A program made the translations under genes and the position numbers. This document shows positions 604-11,516 of a stretch of 64,000 nucleotides of DNA, one piece after another. The DNA is taken from positions 1-64,000 of the forward strand of contig NW_027191473.1 in assembly GCF_011745625.1 (NCBI RefSeq). The letters are read 5' to 3'. This stretch comes from Cladosporium halotolerans. Its lineage: Eukaryota. Numbering within the stretch: the stretch's first letter is position 1; each line of letters begins with the position of its first letter. The notes beneath the pieces were generated by a model, which worked only from the letters and a program-made list of their open reading frames with translations, did not search any database and had not been told where the DNA came from.

Positions 604-894
604 CTAAAGCACCCGCCTGGCGTGGCCGCGACGGAAGGCCTCCCCAACCTCCGTCGGCCAGCACGCGCCGCAGTGAGCGGCGTGGAGGATAATCCTCTCC
701 ACGCGCCCACTGCGGCGCGGACACGCCAGGGCCCCACGCCCTGCGTGGATGTCCGAAGACTGCCCGCAGGGCTTGGGGGTGCGGCGCTCGGTATGGCCGC
801 ACCGGGTGTAGTAGACGATAAAAACTCTCTTGCACACTTTTGGAGTGTTAGTTGATGTTAGGTTCTTTGACCAGTTGCTTCCTGTGGACTTACT
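604..894 (-). CDS. Small Cys/His-rich 'MC' protein 1 (77 aa), start codon split by an intron
   Basis: Minus strand A(894)|GTAAGT...CTAAC..AAG(837)|TG TGC gives ATG. Protein MCKRVFIVYYTRCGHTERRTPKPC...ACP...HCGACW. Upstream noncoding exons are predicted at 1001-894 and 1115-1084. Confidence 0.7.
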   Translation of the reverse strand, partial: SKSTGSNWSKNLTSTNTPKVCKRVFIVYYTRCGHTERRTPKPCGQSSDIHAGRGALACPRRSGRVERIILHAAHCGACWPTEVGEAFRRGHARRVL

Positions 895-2612: not shown

Positions 2613-4470
2613 ATTGAAAAGCTTCAGAAGTGTCGATTCCTGAATTTAATCAGGTGAAATATCCCTGTTTGCTATCGTGAGCGTACGGAGATGATCCTCG
2701 GCGCAGAAGTCTAAGGGTTCCGTGTGGAAGAGATGGAAGTGGTGGCGTGTGGAGCACTGCTGCAGTACTGTAGTCCAGCCGCAGAAGAAGCAATCGCGAT
2801 TCAGCTGTCGACGCAAACAATCACCAGAGAATCGATGGCAGTTTCGCCCTCGAATGTCAAGTTCGAGATGCCTGATGTGTGATCTTCTCTTGTTTTGCTG
2901 GTTTTCTCACGAGTGATGAAGTCGACACATCGTTTAGCTCGGCCTAGCGGGAAGCATTTCCGATCGGCTGGGTGAGCTTGTCTGGACTACACTTCCATCA
3001 CTGCAACCATGTATTTTGATGCTAAAACATCAACGAGTGCATCAAACTCTCTGTAACTTGGCTGGTTTGAGTTGGGGCTTCATTCAATTCGGCTTTGCAA
3101 GATACTATTGCTCGCTGTATGGCCCGCGCCCACACACACCTGCCACGGCACGGAGACCCACATTTATGTTTGTTGCAAATGCGAATCATCGGCACGCTGA
3201 GTTATTAATTGCTTCAGCCTAATTTTATTTTATACTACTTGACCACGGGTCGCATGCGTTTGCTCGTCAACATCAGCCTCTATATAGTTGATTCTAGGGA
3301 CGTGGGAGTGGATTAAACCTCAGGGGCGCAGGGGCAATGACTTTGAACTGAAGGCGTGCATATCAGCTCTCTTCAAGAGTAGCATGGGTTTTATATTTCT
3401 CTGCTTCTTGTTGACACTTGCGACATCTGTATTGTAAAAGCGCCATCTACAATCGATTTACGCAAAGCTGTTTCGTTTCCTTTGGCCCCTTGTGAATTGT
3501 CACGTCGCTTGTTTGTGTATAGCCAAGCCATCATAGTTCGATAGTAGACAGCCACATCTGCTGAAAGATCTCTACTCCAATGGCTCACGAAGAGAGAAGC
3601 TTGCCCTTGCCACGGTGTTTGGTTCAGCAACTATCGACTCCTAGTTGATACTACTTCGCGTCGCATCGTACTCTTGTTGAAGACCGTATCAATCGCAAAG
3701 GATAGCCTGACATGCGTTTTTCTGACAATCGATTGATCTGCCTCCAGCCCCCTCATCAGCTAGGGGCATTATACGGTGGAGTTACGGCAGGATCTTAAGG
3801 AATACTCTGTTCATGCACAAGCCGCGAGGTAATCAGATCTTCAAACACTTTCACGTCACTAGGGGCATCGCTATTGATTAGAGACCTAGTGCAAATGTTA
3901 GAATGCAGCATCGCTGGCGACGCTGGACGTTTTGGGTTTCGTAGTTGCCCCCACTCCCGAGCGCACTCTCCAGACCTCTACTTATTGTCGTTGCCTGGCG
4001 CGTGGATGGCACGTGCTCCCGCAAGGCGCTTGGAGCTCACTTAAGCCCACAACTTGCCACGCTGCTTCTCCTTGACATCCGACAAGCACATCGGTGAGTA
4101 TACCCACACCCCCATTCGCATCACGTCAACAATGAACAGGTTATGTCTGTTCCCCACAGACACGACTAGATGCATCAGGAGCTGCTATCAGCATTAGCGG
4201 ACTCATTGTAGCCATTGATAGATTTACTGACCAGATCGCGACAGCAGACCACCATCAACTCCTGCTCCCCTCCACCACCACCACAACGTAAGTACGCTTC
4301 AGTCTTCGGCCCCTGATAGTAGCACCTTCAGCGCCTTTTGGACTTTATCGAGCCAGGTTCAGATAGGCAGTCGTCATGTCGATTACGCTTCCGCTCGCGT
4401 CTCCCTCGACACCTCAGCTACCTATCAAGTCGATGAAGCATTCGCTGACCACACGTCTAAGTAGACCACC

Positions 4471-5028
4471 ATGTGCGTCGATTGCTTCCTCGTGAAGTGG
4501 GAGTGTCGTGCGGGCTGCACGCACGAAGAGGTGAGGACACGCCGTCCTTGCCAGCAATACCTGCCGGCAGGGGAGGCCGCGCGTGGATTTGCGGACGTCG
4601 CCTGCCCGCTCTCCGGGCCGGGCGACTGCACGCAGGTCTGGCGCGGTCCTTGCCCCGTGCATCGTGTCGGTCCGCCGACATTCCCACTTCTGCTGGCCGG
4701 AAATCGCCAGCTTCTTCCGTTGGCGGCGCTCCGCTATCCGGTGGCGTGGGCGCCGTGGAGAACTTGGCCGCCTGAGGGGGCGGCCGATCTCTCGCGCGCG
4801 CCCAGGCCCCGGCCGCCGACGCCGCCGCCTTCGCCTCCCCCTCCTCCCCCTCCTCCTCCTCCGCCGACGCCGCCGCCACCGCCGCAGCAGCAGCAGCAAT
4901 GTACGTATCGTCCCTTTTCCTTTCTCTCCTACAATCTCAGCGCGTCAGCACAGCGAGCAAGTTCCAGCAACTCTGGCTACTGGAATTGCGATTATGCCCA
5001 GGAGAACAAGAGAGACCAAGAAAAATAG
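4471..5028 (+). CDS. Small Cys/His-rich 'MC' protein 2 with Pro-rich tail (185 aa unspliced; 143 aa if intron 4901-5530 is removed)
   Basis: Acceptor (GCTGAC 4444-4449, TAG 4462-4464) then ACCACC-ATG. MCVDC...GCTHEEVRTRRPC...ACPLSG...CPVH aligns with MC1. Upstream donors GTGAGT 4094 and GTAAGT 4288. Confidence 0.65.
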   Translation: MCVDCFLVKWECRAGCTHEEVRTRRPCQQYLPAGEAARGFADVACPLSGPGDCTQVWRGPCPVHRVGPPTFPLLLAGNRQLLPLAALRYPVAWAPWRTWPPEGAADLSRAPRPRPPTPPPSPPPPPPPPPPPTPPPPPQQQQQCTYRPFSFLSYNLSASAQRASSSNSGYWNCDYAQENKRDQEK

Positions 5029-5559
5029 GATACGGAACCTGTTGGATCGATCACGACGTGGGCATTGGAAACATGCCGACGCGTAGAAGCACTATCACTC
5101 TATAAGCCCTACGTGGGCAATACATCTTCTCAGTGGCCATACAAACCCCTGCTGCAGCTGCCGTGTCTGGAAGGGCCGGATCGTCACATATTCTCGGCAA
5201 GGCCCACCACATGCGAGATTCGCAGAGGCTCGCTCTCGGAGCGACGTTGATGTTTGCATCCGCGTGCTGCCGGCACTCTGTCTCAGACGTCGGATCGTCC
5301 TGGCCAAGCCGTGCCGCCCCGCTTTGAGGGGCTCACCAGGATGACGCAGGCCGCCCGCACCCAAGAAAGTTGTGCCTGATCCGCCGGCTGCCCGCCTGGT
5401 CAACGAACGTGCTTGCTGTGCTGCGCCTGACTTCTGACCACCAAACCTTCTGCCTCTGCCTTTCACCCACCCTCACTTCACTCGCTACCCACCTTCCCAC
5501 CCCAACTGACTAACGCTGTCTTCTCTGCAGAGGCTGCGCAGCTCGAACACGACGGCAAG

Positions 5560-7092
5560 ATGGTTCTCGGACACGGACACCGCAAGAGCATGGGCAGCGC
5601 CCGCAGCAGCATGGATGGCACCGAGACCGACGAGGACGAGACCGTGGTGTCCTCCGAGCAGGGAAACGTCCTCACGCACATCATCAGCCAGCTGCGTCCC
5701 GGCGCCGAACTCTCCCGTGTTACGCTGCCGACTTTCATCCTGGAGCCGCGCAGCATGCTTGAAAGAATCACGAACTTCATGGCTCACCCCGACACCCTAC
5801 TTCCCCTGCCCACCATCGACGACCCTGTCCAGCGTTTCGTAGCCGTCACCAAATTCTACCTTTCCGGCTGGCACATCAAGCCAGCAGGCGTCAAGAAACC
5901 GCTCAACCCGATCCTTGGCGAGACATTTACCGGATATTGGGACTACGCAGACGGCACTCGCGGCTACTACATTTCCGAGCAAACATCACACCACCCGCCC
6001 AAGTCATCATACTTTTTCCTCGCGCCAGAGCATCACATCCGGATAGACGGCACTTTGAAGCCACGCAGCAAGTTTCTTGGGAACAGTGTGGGCAGCTTTA
6101 TGGAGGGAATTGCTGTTATGCGTTTTCAGAACAGGAACGAGAGATAGTGAGTTCCGCAATTCCCGCTGATCACGTTTGCTGAGTCACTAACCGTCATTAG
6201 TTTCATTACCCAACCCAACATGTACGCGCGCGGCATTCTCTTCGGCAAGATGAAGTACGAGCTCGGAGATCACGCAGTCGTTCGTTGCCCTGAGACCGGT
6301 CTTGAAGTAGACATTGAATTCAAGGTCAAGGGCTGGGTAGGCGGCTCGTACAACGCAATTGGCGGCTTCATCAAAGAAACCAAGTCTGGAAAGAACCTTT
6401 TCGAGCTTTCCGGGTACTGGAATGGCGAAATGTACGTCAAGGACTTGGCCACAGGCAAGAAAGAGCTGCTGTTTGATGCTACACACGCAAAACCGCACAT
6501 CCCGAAGGCAAGACCTCTTGAAGAGCAGGCTCCACGAGAAAGCCAGAAGCTCTGGGATGCAACCAACCGAGCGATCAAGAAGAGTGACCACAGAGGCGCG
6601 ACCGACGCTAAGACGGCTATTGAAGAAGAGCAGCGAAGAGAGGCTGCTGAGCGAGGAGAGGGACACGTATGGCAGCCAAAGCTTTTCAAGGCGGCTCCAC
6701 CAGGTGACGAAGAGAACCTTGACTGGATCATCGCGGCGCACGTCGACTCACAAGCACCGCCCGAGAAGCAGATCGAGCAAGTCCTCGCTATCGCACCCGT
6801 TCTCCCCGGCCAGCACCACGCCACTTTTGCCGCCGAAAAGGCACTCCCCTCACAGCAAGGCAAAGAACTGCCGCCTCAAGACAGGCCCCAGGCCTCAGGC
6901 GCGAATGACCTTATCGACTTCGGGCAGAACGACGGCACTTCAGCTACCCCTTCACAGCCCACCAAGACCGCACAGCCCTCCGGTGCACCGCCAGGACTAC
7001 AGGCACCTCTTGTCCCTAGCACAAGCAACAAGGTCTACCGATCAGACTCGCTGGACGGCAATGAGGAGGCGTTCGTCGACGCCGAGTCATGA
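5560..7092 (+). CDS. OSH6: Oxysterol-binding protein, Osh6/Osh7 type
   Basis: Exons 5560-6146 and 6201-7092. Motifs LSRVTLPTFILEPRSMLE, KKPLNPILGE, EQTSHHPP, TQPNMYARGILFGKM. Confidence 0.93.
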
Positions 7093-7784
7093 GCGCTCTG
7101 CGCCTTTCCACCAACTTCACCATTTCCTTGCCGCGTTGCTTTTTTGGTTCAACCCTCTTCTGGTCTTGAAAAATAATGAGCGTTGTGTTGCATACGGTTA
7201 CACAGCTACAAAACTTGCTGATGAAATGAGAGCGGCCGCTACTGATGCGAGCCTTGAAATCTTCAAATCGTTCACCTTTCCCAAGTGTTGTGACGTCCAA
7301 ATGTTTCCACGTTTTATTCGAATCCTAAGAGTAAACGTCGCGCAACTGCGGTCACGCGCTCTAATATATAAATACCAGCCGCCGAAGACAACATGTGATG
7401 GCACGCGCGTTCTGCGGCCGACGAATGGCCAAAAAAGTACCGTAGCCTGTTATTCCTCGCTCCATGCGACAAGTGAGGTAGAAGGGTAATCAATCCCGCG
7501 TGACAGAAATATGTCTTCGAGAGATAATTTTCAGCGAAGAGCTATAGCATGATTCCGGCATGAAATGAAGGCCAAAACTCATGCTTGAAAATTCAATACG
7601 TCCTACCGACATCCTATTATGCGGCCAAACATGAGCGGGACCCGGTGGGTTCCCATTCCGTCTCCTCTGCGTCCCATATCCCAGTGCGCCTGACTCCTCG
7701 CTTGAACAAGAAAATGATTTGGTTTTTTGATCGCCAGTGCCATGGCTTGCCCTCGTCGAACTCCGGATGTCATGTCATTTGTGC

Positions 7785-8200
7785 CTATCGGTTGGTCGTC
7801 TTGAGGATCTCACGCTCGGCGGGGTTGTACCTGGTTTTAAATTAGTCTTGCTCGAGTCGTCACATACAAGGCAGGCGACCACGTACCTGAGAAGCTTCTC
7901 AATAAGGTCGACGTGCGTGAGCAGCATGCGGCGGCAGCAGTAGCGGGTCAGGCCCAGATCGTCAAGAGCTTGTCTGTAGGTGCCGGTTAGGCCTCGATCC
8001 AGTGGCTTTATCTATAGCTTTGGAAAGTCGCATACCCTTCAGTCAGGCCCTCACCGCTCTCCGGGTCAATCAGCTTGACGTATTTGGTCCAGAGGTCACC
8101 GACGACCTGTCGCGAAAGTTGTTAGTCTGGCGTGCCACGTGCAAGACGCATCGCGGGCGCTTACCTTGCCGCAGGAGAAGCAGCGAACGGGAATGATCAT
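7785..8200 (-). CDS. RPB10: RNA polymerases I/II/III shared subunit RPABC5
   Basis: Exons 8200-8165, 8106-8036, 7973-7887 and 7830-7785 give [18 protein letters not shown]...[27 protein letters not shown]. Confidence 0.97.
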
Positions 8201-8444
8201 TTTGACGGTCTGCGACGGATTTGCGAAGCTTTCGGGTGCGTATGAGGGCGGCGATGTTGTTGTGGCCTTCTCGGTGGTCTCGGTGCAAGAATGGTGTCTG
8301 CGGCGGCAGAACGCGGGCGGTGAGCGGAGGTTTGCTCCAGAAAAGTTCACGCAAGCGCGGGCTTTCGAGGCGAAATCTACTCCAGCTGCAACCTCGACCT
8401 CGGCCTTTCGCACTTCCTTAGCACTTGCAGGATTGAGGGAGAAT
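8201..8444. promoter_or_regulatory. Compact bidirectional promoter RPB10/NAN1
   Basis: 244 bp between divergent ATGs. Contains an RRPE-like GAAAAGTT element (~8340). Confidence 0.55.
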
Positions 8445-11400
8445 ATGGCTGGTCCAAAAAGCCCTTTGGATGCCACTGGCAAAAAGCGCAAGCAGAGTGC
8501 TGAGGACAGCCCTGCCGCCAACAATCAAAAGAGACTGAAGAAAGATGTCGCGAATGCGAATGCCTCAACTCCGAACAAGTCTGGCAAGGGGTCGGCGAAG
8601 AAAGATGAGGCAAGGCAGTCTGCCAATGGAGAGAGCACACCGAAAGAACAGTCTAGCTTGAGCAAAAAGGAACGGAAGGAATTGAAAAAAGAGGTCGAAC
8701 AAAAGAGCGCATCGGAAACGAACCCTGCAGTCGCCACACCCTCGAAGCATACCAAATCTGTTCCTCTCGCGCCAGCTGACAACACGCCTTTGACCGATGA
8801 GCAGAGGCGCCAGCGTGCCGCCGAGAAGAAGGCAAGGAGGCAGTCTGAGAAACTCGCGAGAGCCGCAGATGTCGCAGCGACGCCCCAGACAATCTCTAAG
8901 ACGAAGTCGGCGAAAAAGCCATCGTCTGGCGTCACGAAGAGCAACACTGGAAAATCCTCTGCCTGGAATATGTCAGCAGCCTCTGCTGGGCGATACATTG
9001 CACGCGATCCCATCTTCGTTACGGACGCGGCTGGAGAAAGATACATTGCGGCGGCGACAGCTCGTGAAATCCAAGTGCTTTCTCTTGAAACATCGCTCTC
9101 GGTCCGAGCCCTTCAGATCAGTGGCACTGTTGTAGGATTTTGCCAGGAGCCTGGTTCATCCGCCATCAGCATTCTGGACAGCACCGGAAACATTACCACC
9201 TGGGAATGGGAACAAAACAAGACAAGGGTTGGCGCTGCGCCGCAGACCCATGCATTGAAGTCATACGTTGCTGCCCACGTCGAGGTAGCTGAGGGAAAGC
9301 ACCGCCCCGTGCGTATTATTCTTTCTGCTACTGACAAGGGAAGCACTGTTTATATCGACCAAAAGAGTGCCTACAAGACGAAAACTGCTCTCACAGATTT
9401 GCGCGTTGTCGGCAACATGGATGTCATCATGGCCACTGGATCCAACGTCGTCATTTTGGGAAGGCGTAAAGCCAGCTCGAGCGACGAATATATCTGGGCT
9501 GAGCTGCCGACCTCTGGTGGACTTACTTGCGCTTCGATTGCTATCAGGCGTGATGGCCAGCCCGGCACACCTCCCGGTCTCCGTCTTGCGATCGGCAACA
9601 AGGACGGTCAAATCCACCTTTACGAAGAGGTGTCTCGTCTATTCAACGGCAAAGACCTCCCGTCACCGAGAGTCTTGCACTGGCATCGCGAGGCTGTCTC
9701 CTCTGTCAAATTCACGCCCGACAACCAGTACTTGATCTCTGGAGGCAAAGAAACGGTCTTGGTTCTCTGGCAACTCGAAACCGGCAAGAAGCAATTCCTG
9801 CCGCATTTAACTTCGGAGGTGGAGCGTCTTGTTATTAGCCCTGAAGGCGACAGGTATGCTGTCCAGATGGGCGACAACTCTATCATGGTTCTTTCCAGTA
9901 GTGAACTCAAACCTGTGGCGAACTTTGCTGGACTCCAAATGCCGGTCTCGCCTCAGAATCTGGGTGCGTCACATGGAGCGGCGCAATTGGCGAGTGTCAC
10001 CGCCATCCTGCACCCCCAGCAAAACGACCAGCTTCTCTTGGCTGTTCCAGCTACTCAGCCGAAGACCAATGACGACGTTGCTGCTCGGCCTTTCCTTCAA
10101 GCTTTCGATATTTACAACTCCCGCCACATTACTCGCCAAGCTCTTACCAGGAACAACGTCACTGATTTCAACCTTGGCCCTGAGCGAACTCCTATCATCC
10201 CGCCTGACGTCGCGTTCTTAGCGATCAGCCATGACGGCGAATGGCTTGCCACAGTAGACGAATGGCTGCCGCCTGCGTCTGATGTGCAGTATCTGGCAGC
10301 CGATGAGGACCAAGTTGAAGAAGAGCAGCTCAAGAGGCGCGAAGTCCACCTGAAGTTCTGGCAGTGGAGTTCAGCGCAAAGTGTATGGACTCTTACAACA
10401 CGAGTCGACGCACCCCACTCCCGAGCTTCAGATGACAGCCGAGGCGCCGGCAGCGTTCTTGGACTCATTGCTAACCCCGTATCGCGTGGTTTCGTAACTG
10501 TCGGCGAGGACGCTGCGGTGAAAACGTGGAGGCCCAAGACGAGACTGAGGCACGGTATGCCTATGAAGGACGAGCAAGGCAATGAAGTGACTGAGTGGAC
10601 GTGCAAGCACAACGTGCAGCTCGAGAAGCAGCTTGCCCGCGTGGATACGCCGATATTCGATGAAGACGATGTCGAGGCGGAGCTTATGGGGCCCACCAGC
10701 GCTCATCTTGCCTTCTCCGAGGATGGGTCCACGATCGCTGCTGCTGTGTGCTACGACTTCATGGCAGAGGCGCCTGTGGCCCACTTGATTGACGCTTACG
10801 CTGGTGAGGTGAGGCACTCAAAAGACAACATCCTCGCCGCCGATCTTTGTGGATTTGGCTTCTTGGACCGCTACCTCATCACACTCTCACGGGAAACCCT
10901 TCGCGTATGGGATCTGGTTCAGGACACACTTCACTATCACGTCACACTGCCGCAAATTGCCGATGAGGCCGACCAGCCGATGCTTGCCATCAACTACCAG
11001 GATTCCACATTCGCTGTCATTGTTCCGCCTACGAAGCGCGGCAGAGGGAGCGTGGAGGTCTTCGAGCCGCAAAACTCTGAGAGCTTACACAGAGAAACGC
11101 TTGCTGCGCCTGTTGCCGCTATTCTAGCAAGCAAAGGTGCCAGAGGCTATGTACTTCTATTTGCTGACGCTACTGTGCGCATGCTGGCCAAGACCGGTAC
11201 TGTCCGCAGGCCTGTGATGCAGTCCAAGCTCGCCAGTGCCGCTGCCAATGCAAAGGCCGAGAAGGCGCTGTCTGCTTCGCAAAAGACCGCTGTCCCTGAT
11301 CTGCTCGCTTCCGCAGCTGGTGGCGCGCAAGAAGGCACAGCTTTGGAGGAGACCGAAGACGACCGCCCTGTTGTTCGTCCTGAACAGCTTGCTAGTATTT

Positions 11401-11516
11401 TTGACGTCGGTCAAGGCGTAGCTCTGCCTTCGGTCAGAGATATGTACCGTGCCGTGGCGGATTTGTACAGTAGGAAGCCGAGAGCGAAAGCGGAGGCGAT
11501 GGAGATCGACGGCTAG
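8445..11516 (+). CDS. NAN1: U3 snoRNP t-UTP subunit Nan1/Utp17 (WDR75), WD40 protein
   Basis: Lys-rich N-terminus from MAGPKSPL. Motifs LHWHREAVSSVKFTPDNQYLISGGKETVLVLWQLETGKKQFLPHL and QALTRNNVT. The ORF-track start at 8139 overlaps RPB10 and is rejected. Confidence 0.9.
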   Translation: MAGPKSPLDATGKKRKQSAEDSPAANNQKRLKKDVANANASTPNKSGKGSAKKDEARQSANGESTPKEQSSLSKKERKELKKEVEQKSASETNPAVATPSKHTKSVPLAPADNTPLTDEQRRQRAAEKKARRQSEKLARAADVAATPQTISKTKSAKKPSSGVTKSNTGKSSAWNMSAASAGRYIARDPIFVTDAAGERYIAAATAREIQVLSLETSLSVRALQISGTVVGFCQEPGSSAISILDSTGNITTWEWEQNKTRVGAAPQTHALKSYVAAHVEVAEGKHRPVRIILSATDKGSTVYIDQKSAYKTKTALTDLRVVGNMDVIMATGSNVVILGRRKASSSDEYIWAELPTSGGLTCASIAIRRDGQPGTPPGLRLAIGNKDGQIHLYEEVSRLFNGKDLPSPRVLHWHREAVSSVKFTPDNQYLISGGKETVLVLWQLETGKKQFLPHLTSEVERLVISPEGDRYAVQMGDNSIMVLSSSELKPVANFAGLQMPVSPQNLGASHGAAQLASVTAILHPQQNDQLLLAVPATQPKTNDDVAARPFLQAFDIYNSRHITRQALTRNNVTDFNLGPERTPIIPPDVAFLAISHDGEWLATVDEWLPPASDVQYLAADEDQVEEEQLKRREVHLKFWQWSSAQSVWTLTTRVDAPHSRASDDSRGAGSVLGLIANPVSRGFVTVGEDAAVKTWRPKTRLRHGMPMKDEQGNEVTEWTCKHNVQLEKQLARVDTPIFDEDDVEAELMGPTSAHLAFSEDGSTIAAAVCYDFMAEAPVAHLIDAYAGEVRHSKDNILAADLCGFGFLDRYLITLSRETLRVWDLVQDTLHYHVTLPQIADEADQPMLAINYQDSTFAVIVPPTKRGRGSVEVFEPQNSESLHRETLAAPVAAILASKGARGYVLLFADATVRMLAKTGTVRRPVMQSKLASAAANAKAEKALSASQKTAVPDLLASAAGGAQEGTALEETEDDRPVVRPEQLASIFDVGQGVALPSVRDMYRAVADLYSRKPRAKAEAMEIDG

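Follow-up and report, generated by a model that had tools for sequence, protein, structure and literature searches.

The leader of a gene can hold a splice acceptor that the main mRNA of that gene does not use, and the question is then to which transcript the acceptor belongs. Such a case is found in a stretch of 64,000 nucleotides (nt) of Cladosporium halotolerans (contig NW_027191473.1, positions 1 to 64,000), hereafter the window, where an OSH6-like gene on the plus strand (5560-7092) is preceded by an open reading frame (ORF) for a small protein that begins with Met-Cys, which we call MC2. A preliminary description of the locus noted that the nearest canonical donor before the OSH6 acceptor lies inside the MC2 ORF, and proposed that the two genes share a transcription unit with MC2 as a large upstream ORF (uORF), or even that they are joined into one protein. 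We find that the main OSH6 mRNA is independent and is made from its own proximal promoter, and that the donor, the acceptor and the position of the ORF recur in related loci. It is plausible that a distal isoform, minor or conditional, is made beside the proximal mRNA and carries MC2 as a long uORF, with about as much speaking for this as against it.

The main OSH6 mRNA and its promoter

The ORFs at 5560-6147 and 6220-7092 match PF01237 in Pfam (E 1.2e-40 and 1.9e-22), with 140 bits for exon 1 and 80.1 bits for exon 2 against a gathering cut-off of 28.9. The translation of exon 1 contains a one-residue variant of an EQVSHHPP-like motif, which we take to be a signature of the oxysterol-binding lipid-binding domain. 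The protein is probably of the Osh6/Osh7 type, ORD-only, with PF01237 over both exons and nothing unusual in it, and homologues have been named 'Oxysterol-binding protein 6' and 'related to ... (Osh7)' by their sources. The best matches of the exon-1 protein are from Dothideomycetes (Peltaster, Elsinoe, Zasmidium, Cercospora and others), with identities of at most 88%. Among the 40 closest homologues the protein starts with MVLG in 35, with MTLG in 4 and otherwise in 1, and none of these 40 has an N-terminal extension beyond the equivalent of the ATG at 5560.

Part of the window is contained in 20 of the 23 listed sequencing runs, and the contigs of four of them (X1, X2, X3 and X5) were mapped. 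X2 is an RNA library on record and X3 is RNA, since the coding intron is spliced in it; X1 has coverage in all bins, even over the coding intron, as DNA from a different strain would. In X2 a single contig of 1740 nt joins 5475-6146 to 6201-7247, and its 5' end bears loose letters matching what we take to be a SMART-type template-switch oligo. In one X3 contig the match begins at 5451, right after letters of an Illumina adapter, and adapter letters also close another contig at 7232. The X2 and X3 contigs are contiguous and unspliced across the proposed acceptor at 5507-5530, the depth of both runs in the bin 5434-5564 is that of the single unspliced contigs, and no second, spliced contig over 5531-5564 was found in X2 or X3. 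Because its 5' ends lie at 5451-5475, and it is unspliced at 5530 with no joint to 5531, the main OSH6 mRNA is independent of the upstream unit. It starts 85-109 nt before the ATG, its proximal leader has no upstream ATG, and the coding intron at 6147-6200 is its sole intron. The preliminary description had let the shared unit depend on OSH6 transcription start sites upstream of 5030, and both observed 5' ends, at 5451 and 5475 and each from a different study, are downstream of that position.

The sequences in front of the gene were compared with 49 related loci from a metagenome contig scan (L001 and onwards, the window being WIN in the comparisons). Several of them, L001-L010, are 93-96% identical in the exon-1 protein and about 80-86% in coding DNA. 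BLAST similarity to their upstream regions is confined to 5365-5433 of the window, just before the mRNA 5' ends, and this block is probably an element of the proximal promoter. Shorter conserved blocks appear when the window is aligned with L001, L002, L008, L010 and L037, at 5240-5345 and 4935-5030 within the putative long intron; they are GCTGACGTC, GGGCCAAGCCG, ATGACGCAG and, just after the donor, a CGCGTCAGCA block, and they resemble sites for transcription factors in the OSH6 promoter.

Donor, acceptor and MC2 reading frame in related loci

The coordinates and the junction arithmetic of the preliminary description are all correct when checked on the window sequence. The donor GTACGT is at 4901-4906, and position 4900 is the first base of codon 144 (phase 1) in an ORF of 185 amino acids (aa) at 4471-5028. 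The OSH6 leader has the branch-like TGACTAAC at 5507-5514 and CAG at 5528-5530. A joint of 4900 with 5531 produces T|AG, and nine sense codons later comes the ATG at 5560, in frame with it. The donor at 4901 is indeed the nearest canonical one, with no other between 4907 and 5507 in the window.

The acceptor looks real and is kept in relatives. At 30-145 nt upstream of the ATG, 9 of 10 aligned leaders have CTRAY followed by a pyrimidine tract and YAG, with variable flanks (L010 has AAG in place of YAG), and the signal is also found in L011, L014, L016 and L018. We also considered L012, L013, L015 and L019, which are shorter and have no coding intron, as candidates for spliced leaders; they are more distant species and were set aside as uninformative. 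The leader of L013 keeps an unspliced TACTAAT..CAG.

A scan for donors of the pattern GTRNGT revealed a regular series of strong plus-strand donors upstream of OSH6, the last of which stands 630-860 nt before the acceptor and reads GTAAGT or GTACGT in the window, L001, L002, L003, L004, L006, L010, L011 and L037. In the alignment the equivalent of the 4901 donor is GTAAGT or GTACGT in L001, L002, L010 and L037 and GTTAGT in L008; in L003, L006, L004 and L011 there is a donor at a similar distance. The 13 loci with the acceptor (the scan matches, plus L010 by alignment) contain 41 GTAAGT/GTACGT donors on the plus strand versus 9 on the minus strand, and the 9 more distant loci that lack the acceptor contain none on the plus strand. 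Judged from this recurrence of donor, acceptor and ORF in relatives, the pattern exceeds chance, though for other reasons than those first given for it.

The donors belong to a unit that could be aligned with MAFFT over the window, L001, L010, L037, L008 and L002. It begins with an exon that ends at a donor (4094 in the window; both the end of the exon and the donor have conserved counterparts in L001, L010, L037 and L008), followed by an intron with a GCTGAC-type branch and a short CAA/CCA-rich exon that ends in CGTAAGT (4288 in the window). After an extra mini-exon in L001, L008, L010 and L037 come the branch AGCTGACC and CAG, with ATGTGC 4-10 nt later. The expectation that MC2 stands upstream of OSH6 in relatives held for several loci with the conserved unit, but no MC unit is visible in L009. 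A second phase-1 donor had been proposed at 4288; GTAAGT is there, but the phase is arithmetic only, with no ATG upstream in the modelled leader.

In the modelled distal leader the ATG of MC2 is the first one. An ORF starting with Met-Cys occupies the equivalent place in the window, L001, L002, L008, L010, L037, L003 and L011, and one with a different start in L006, L016 and L018. The ATG follows the acceptor by 4-10 nt and has a purine at -3 in all eight loci. From the ATG to the donor, frame 0 is free of stops in seven of seven loci and is the sole such frame of the six; it is also open to the donor in L006, L016 and L018, and in L008 once an internal intron is removed. This L008 intron (989-1045) is a canonical one of 57 nt, with GTACGT, GCTGAC and CAG, which leaves the ORF open when taken out, and it seems to be a case of intron gain in a very small ORF. 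The tract has 70-76% G+C and keeps frames open on both strands (three of six are without stop over 4471-4900), so the openness of the 185-aa ORF alone means little. In four of five sequences of the relatives called group A the MC frame stays open 42-132 codons past the donor; we rejected this as coding evidence, since other frames are open there for 61-88 codons.

In group A the peptide keeps M1, C2, C16, T23, P26, C27, R38, C45, P60 and C61 (alignment A2). Among the ORFs of the window the A2 profile detects a paralogue, MC1, on the minus strand, and C2, C16, T23, P26, C27, C45 and C61 stay invariant when MC1 is added to five orthologues (alignment A5). The marks of the family, a Met-Cys start, C16, T23, P26-C27, C45 and C61 in MC2 numbering, are all present. 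Because MC1 is detected at E 3.5e-6 with the same invariant Cys columns, MC2 is probably a genuine member of a small, undescribed Cys-rich family, and its two copies, at a distance of 3.6 kb from each other, may stem from a local duplication. As we read MC1, a 57-nt intron splits its start codon, the TG of which is at 836-835, 76 codons follow at 834-607 with the stop at 606-604, and a 56-nt intron lies in the 3' part, after the stop. A CCG-rich leader exon lies upstream of MC1, with leader exons to about 1100, and MC1 converges on a plus-strand gene.

Pfam gave no match for MC2, MC1 or three orthologues, and a word-indexed protein search with the 185-aa ORF gave nothing, poly-Pro words probably having crowded its 8000 candidates. 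A phmmer search with MC2 over 1.84 billion representatives gave 6 matches, all on the Pro-rich residues 69-152, and the A2 profile gave 231 candidates in the protein collection, none at E<=0.01; an exact look-up of 6 ORFs in that collection found none. With tblastn, MC2 had no match over the relatives' loci, and tblastx over the upstream regions matched only the CCG-rich tract. An AlphaFold model of the MC2 domain, made from 6 sequences, has three strands and a predicted local distance difference test score (pLDDT) of 69.6, and Foldseek of this model against PDB gave nothing at E<=0.001. In the ESM Atlas, MC1 scores 0.90-0.91 to clusters of fungal 'hypothetical proteins' of 73-84 aa, a lead only.

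Leader intron 1 has a long predicted hairpin in the group-A relatives (L001 2450-2545, L010 695-790, L037 1115-1212 and L008 450-545), with 32 pairs of which 8 have compensatory changes, and the window sequence breaks most of the pairs. Rfam gave nothing over seven loci, this hairpin included, and nothing but ceN40 at E 0.78 on 3600-5700 of the window. A snoRNA host gene upstream of OSH6 was considered and is unsupported, with no Rfam match in the window or the seven loci.

The proposed distal isoform and its alternatives

In the explanation that we favour, the OSH6-like gene has its own proximal promoter and a main mRNA from 5451-5475 without upstream AUG, and in front of it lies a conserved multi-intron plus-strand unit, the third exon of which would open with the first AUG and encode MC2. 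In a minor or conditional distal isoform the donor of this exon at 4901 would pair with the acceptor of the OSH6 leader at 5530, and the proximal promoter would then lie inside a 630-nt intron. MC2 would be translated from the distal isoform and, in the window, translation would end at the junction TAG; in relatives the ribosomes would run past the OSH6 AUG or stop just before it. OSH6 would be poorly translated from this isoform, and unfused, as in long undecoded transcript isoforms (LUTI) or with a large uORF.

What a joined transcript would look like was modelled in eight loci (the window, L001, L002, L010, L011, L037, L003 and L006). The window gives a stop at the junction and 143 aa. In L001, L002, L010 and L011 the result is an ORF of 128-138 aa that runs past the OSH6 ATG in a different frame, with a Pro-rich reading after the junction in L001, L002 and L010, while the stop of L037 overlaps the first base of the OSH6 ATG and the stops of L003 and L006 come at most 12 nt before it. 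In the modelled loci the upstream ORF thus always reaches the OSH6 start, either ending at it or overlapping it. The upstream ORF overlaps or abuts the OSH6 AUG in most relatives, and this favours repression over co-expression.

In budding yeast, according to excerpts of two papers, LUTI are 5'-extended mRNAs from a distal promoter with a uORF that diverts ribosomes, the proximal mRNA being well translated (PMC8829799, PMC8153250), and alternative use of start sites in fungi is treated in an excerpt of a further one (PMC9604717). The isoform proposed here would resemble LUTI in its distal promoter and upstream ORF set against a proximal, translated mRNA. It would differ in that the extension is spliced, with three leader introns of which the last removes the whole proximal promoter, and in that its upstream ORF, long at 63-143 codons, is one of a small family of proteins that includes a paralogue. 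Bicistronic and polycistronic mRNAs of fungi and green algae carry two ORFs on a capped, polyadenylated transcript, as excerpts describe them (PMC4503453, PMC7896298); here no two-ORF transcript was found in the contigs, and the upstream ORF mostly overlaps or abuts the OSH6 AUG. A literature search found, among the papers listed, no specific one on a fungal OSH gene with a uORF or an alternative promoter. If the isoform exists, it would represent LUTI or uORF control in a conserved and spliced form in filamentous ascomycetes, acting on a lipid-transfer protein of the phosphatidylserine/sterol type through a uORF from an undescribed Cys-rich family, and annotators would be warned that a strong leader acceptor can belong to a minor isoform of the neighbouring unit. 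If it is absent, the locus consists of two neighbouring genes of an ordinary kind, and what remains is a new family of small proteins that is present twice in the window.

A fusion protein of MC2, a linker and Osh6, made by readthrough of the junction UAG or its A-to-I editing to UGG, had been put forward in the preliminary description. Such stop-codon editing is described in excerpts on PUK1 and DBF2 of Fusarium (PMC4817773, PMC11156358, PMC13123824), and the window resembles those cases in having a UAG with U at -1 of the A and a longer frame if edited, the OSH6 ATG following in frame after nine sense codons. The junction TAG is found in one of the eight modelled loci, and the in-frame relation in three (the window and the closely related pair L003 and L006), about what chance would give; neither stop nor frame is conserved. 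The lack of N-terminal extensions among the closest homologues also stands against a fusion, and no other letter was found at 5531 among the differences listed, those contigs being of unspliced mRNA. According to an excerpt of another study, mRNA editing depends on an interaction of Ame1 with Tad3 that arose in Sordariomycetes, and the editing ability arose independently in Pezizomycetes (PMC11087585), and the organism, placed in the Dothideomycetes from its best protein matches only, would be outside the lineages with the described Tad2-Tad3-Ame1 editing ability. Because of the Dothideomycete host and the non-conserved stop and frame, we consider a fusion protein very unlikely and give it next to no credence.

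Mapping masked the repeat tract at 4789-4903, on the donor side of 4900^5531, where a joint and a loose end of X5 were dropped, and rare forms are lost from contigs as well, so that a minor isoform may have been missed. Low-depth contigs cover 4009-4181, 4282-4432 and 4418-4733, with depths of 13, 9.4 and 34.1 in X3 versus 95-203 on OSH6, 3.4 versus 25.4 in X2, and 4.45 versus 97-265 in X5. Over the four runs two joints only were reported, 6146^6201 (GT..AG; X2, X3 and X5) and 4181^4232 (CT..AC; X3). A coverage hole at 4910-5433 in X2, X3 and X5, with 4418-4733 covered, would fit splicing at 4901, and we rejected it as evidence, as holes prove nothing.

Several observations weigh against the distal isoform. 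Neither of the joints foreseen in the preliminary description, 4900^5531 and 4287^5531, was reported in the RNA contigs, and 4900^5531 is in no contig of X2, X3 or X5, a weak point with its donor side masked; nor did any contig in the four runs link the upstream unit to OSH6 or bear both ORFs, the same tract being masked. The upstream contigs are unspliced at the 4094 donor, which an X3 contig reads straight through, at the 4288 donor and at the 4464 acceptor, where contigs of X2, X3 and X5 run across 4464/4465. The sole joint there, 4181^4232, has minus-strand GT..AG ends, so part or all of the upstream RNA may be antisense. Its minus-strand donor GTCAGT is the reverse complement of the plus-strand branch ACTGAC, and the skip of 4182-4231 is either an antisense intron or a 50-nt strain deletion in X3. 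The co-occurrence of donor and acceptor is confounded by shared descent, and L009 has the acceptor with neither an MC unit nor a strong donor in its 1297 nt upstream; the unit may have been displaced beyond the end of the contig by an inserted repeat. In the window, L001, L002, L008, L010 and L037 a CAG stands 33-47 nt past the donor and would allow a local mini-intron, and MC1 resembles a stand-alone gene with its own stop. Conservation of the peptide is weak, with a ratio of nonsynonymous to synonymous substitution rates (dN/dS) of 0.33-0.72 within group A and, with dS saturated, of 0.18-0.49 for the window against group A; the differences within group A are spread almost evenly across codon positions, and over 4578 ORFs of the loci the A5 profile has no match outside group A, neither in group B nor farther away. 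A shared unit with MC2 as a large uORF is reasonable from conservation, but it is not the source of the main OSH6 mRNA.

A rival explanation is that MC2 is a small-protein gene of its own, like MC1, with an mRNA that ends before the OSH6 promoter. The 4901 donor would then be unused or paired with the CAG at 4938-4940, as a 40-nt intron, and the OSH6 acceptor might be a leftover or regulatory site, or the partner of a weak donor near 5409. The short intron that MC1 has after its stop, the CAG following the donor in six loci, the acceptor of L009, with GTGTGT in a conserved block 104 nt before it, and the independence of the main OSH6 mRNA all agree with this. An intron of 33-40 nt would however be shorter than those seen here (50-57 nt), and the window candidate is without a CTRAY branch; the frame after the mini-intron differs between the window (40 nt) and L001 (36 nt), and as the tract past the donor is stop-poor in all frames, its openness proves nothing. 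The donor near 5409 is a non-canonical GTGCTT upstream of both observed mRNA 5' ends, and the conserved acceptor would be left without a partner. We regard this explanation as somewhat unlikely. Another makes the upstream unit a spliced RNA that encodes no protein, whether sense or antisense, and whose transcription tunes the OSH6 promoter; the MC2 ORF would then be an accident of G+C content. This would be in line with the several open frames over the tract (each MC ORF alone is open in 7-34% of shuffles), with the dN/dS values within group A, with the minus-strand joint, and with three large protein searches that gave only Pro-rich low-complexity matches. It accounts less well for the same frame being open in every relative examined, for the ATG and its purine at a constant place after the acceptor, and for the Cys columns shared by the orthologues and MC1, and we hold it to be unlikely.

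A more specific picture would make MC2 and OSH6 a conserved dual-promoter, spliced gene-in-leader, where a new 5-Cys, Met-Cys, poly-proline microprotein, translated from the distal isoform, gates OSH6 synthesis by ending at the OSH6 AUG or overlapping it, and possibly by proline stalling of ribosomes, and skipping of the MC exon (4287^5531) gives a distal isoform that can be translated; this we find highly doubtful.

Features of the locus and neighbouring genes

Table 1. Coordinates of the features discussed, in positions of the window.
Feature	Position	Strand	Basis or remark
MC1, paralogue of MC2	607..836	-	A2 profile E 3.5e-6 among window ORFs; introns read from sequence only
Putative distal leader exon 1, no ATG, ends at GTGAGT 4094	4009..4093	+	X3 contig starts at 4009; RNA strand ambiguous
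Putative leader intron 1: GTGAGT, branch TACTGAC 4225-4231, CAG 4242-4244 or 4245-4247	4094..4244	+	sequence and alignment
50-nt stretch skipped in one X3 contig	4182..4231	-	26 letters on shorter side; minus-strand GTCAGT, CTAAT branch, CAG
Putative leader exon 2, low-complexity CCA/CAA tract, no ATG	4245..4287	+	alignment, ATG scan
Putative leader intron 2: GTAAGT, branch GCTGAC 4444, acceptor TAG 4462-4464	4288..4464	+	sequence and alignment
MC2 ORF to donor, 143 codons and 1 base; Cys-rich N-terminal domain of ~65 aa, Pro/Gln-rich tract	4471..4900	+	alignments
CCG/CAG low-complexity tract encoding poly-Pro/Gln tail	4789..4903	+	masked in RNA mapping
GTACGT donor ending the MC2 exon, phase 1	4901..4906	+	sequence
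Putative 630-nt intron of distal isoform, enclosing OSH6 proximal promoter	4901..5530	+	suggested by conserved donor and acceptor
Only upstream block with nucleotide similarity to relatives; probable proximal-promoter element	5365..5433	+	BLAST, alignment; just before mRNA 5' ends
5' ends of main OSH6 mRNA	5451..5475	+	X3 and X2 contigs
Conserved 3' splice site: branch-like TGACTAAC, pyrimidine tract, CAG	5507..5530	+	unspliced in main mRNA
OSH6-like coding exon 1	5560..6146	+	PF01237 E 1.2e-40; conserved MVLG start
Coding intron, GT..AG, 54 nt	6147..6200	+	joint 6146^6201 in X2, X3 and X5
OSH6-like coding exon 2 with stop	6201..7092	+	PF01237; mRNA 3' ends near 7232-7247

Upstream of OSH6 in the window there is an ORF at 1872-2513 on the minus strand, presumably isochorismatase/nicotinamidase-like. 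Its homologue is also upstream of OSH6 in relatives, oriented against OSH6 in L001, L011, L018 and L044 and in the same direction as OSH6 in L031, and the neighbourhood is therefore syntenic. In L009, tandem-like repeats of ~162 nt lie upstream of OSH6 at 280-870, in place of the MC unit. Near the start of the window a plus-strand ORF from 144 (about 144-400) is interrupted after 39 codons; we take it to encode a GlcG/DUF336-type protein with an intron. Just downstream of OSH6 follows an ORF of 1107 aa at 8193-11516 on the plus strand.

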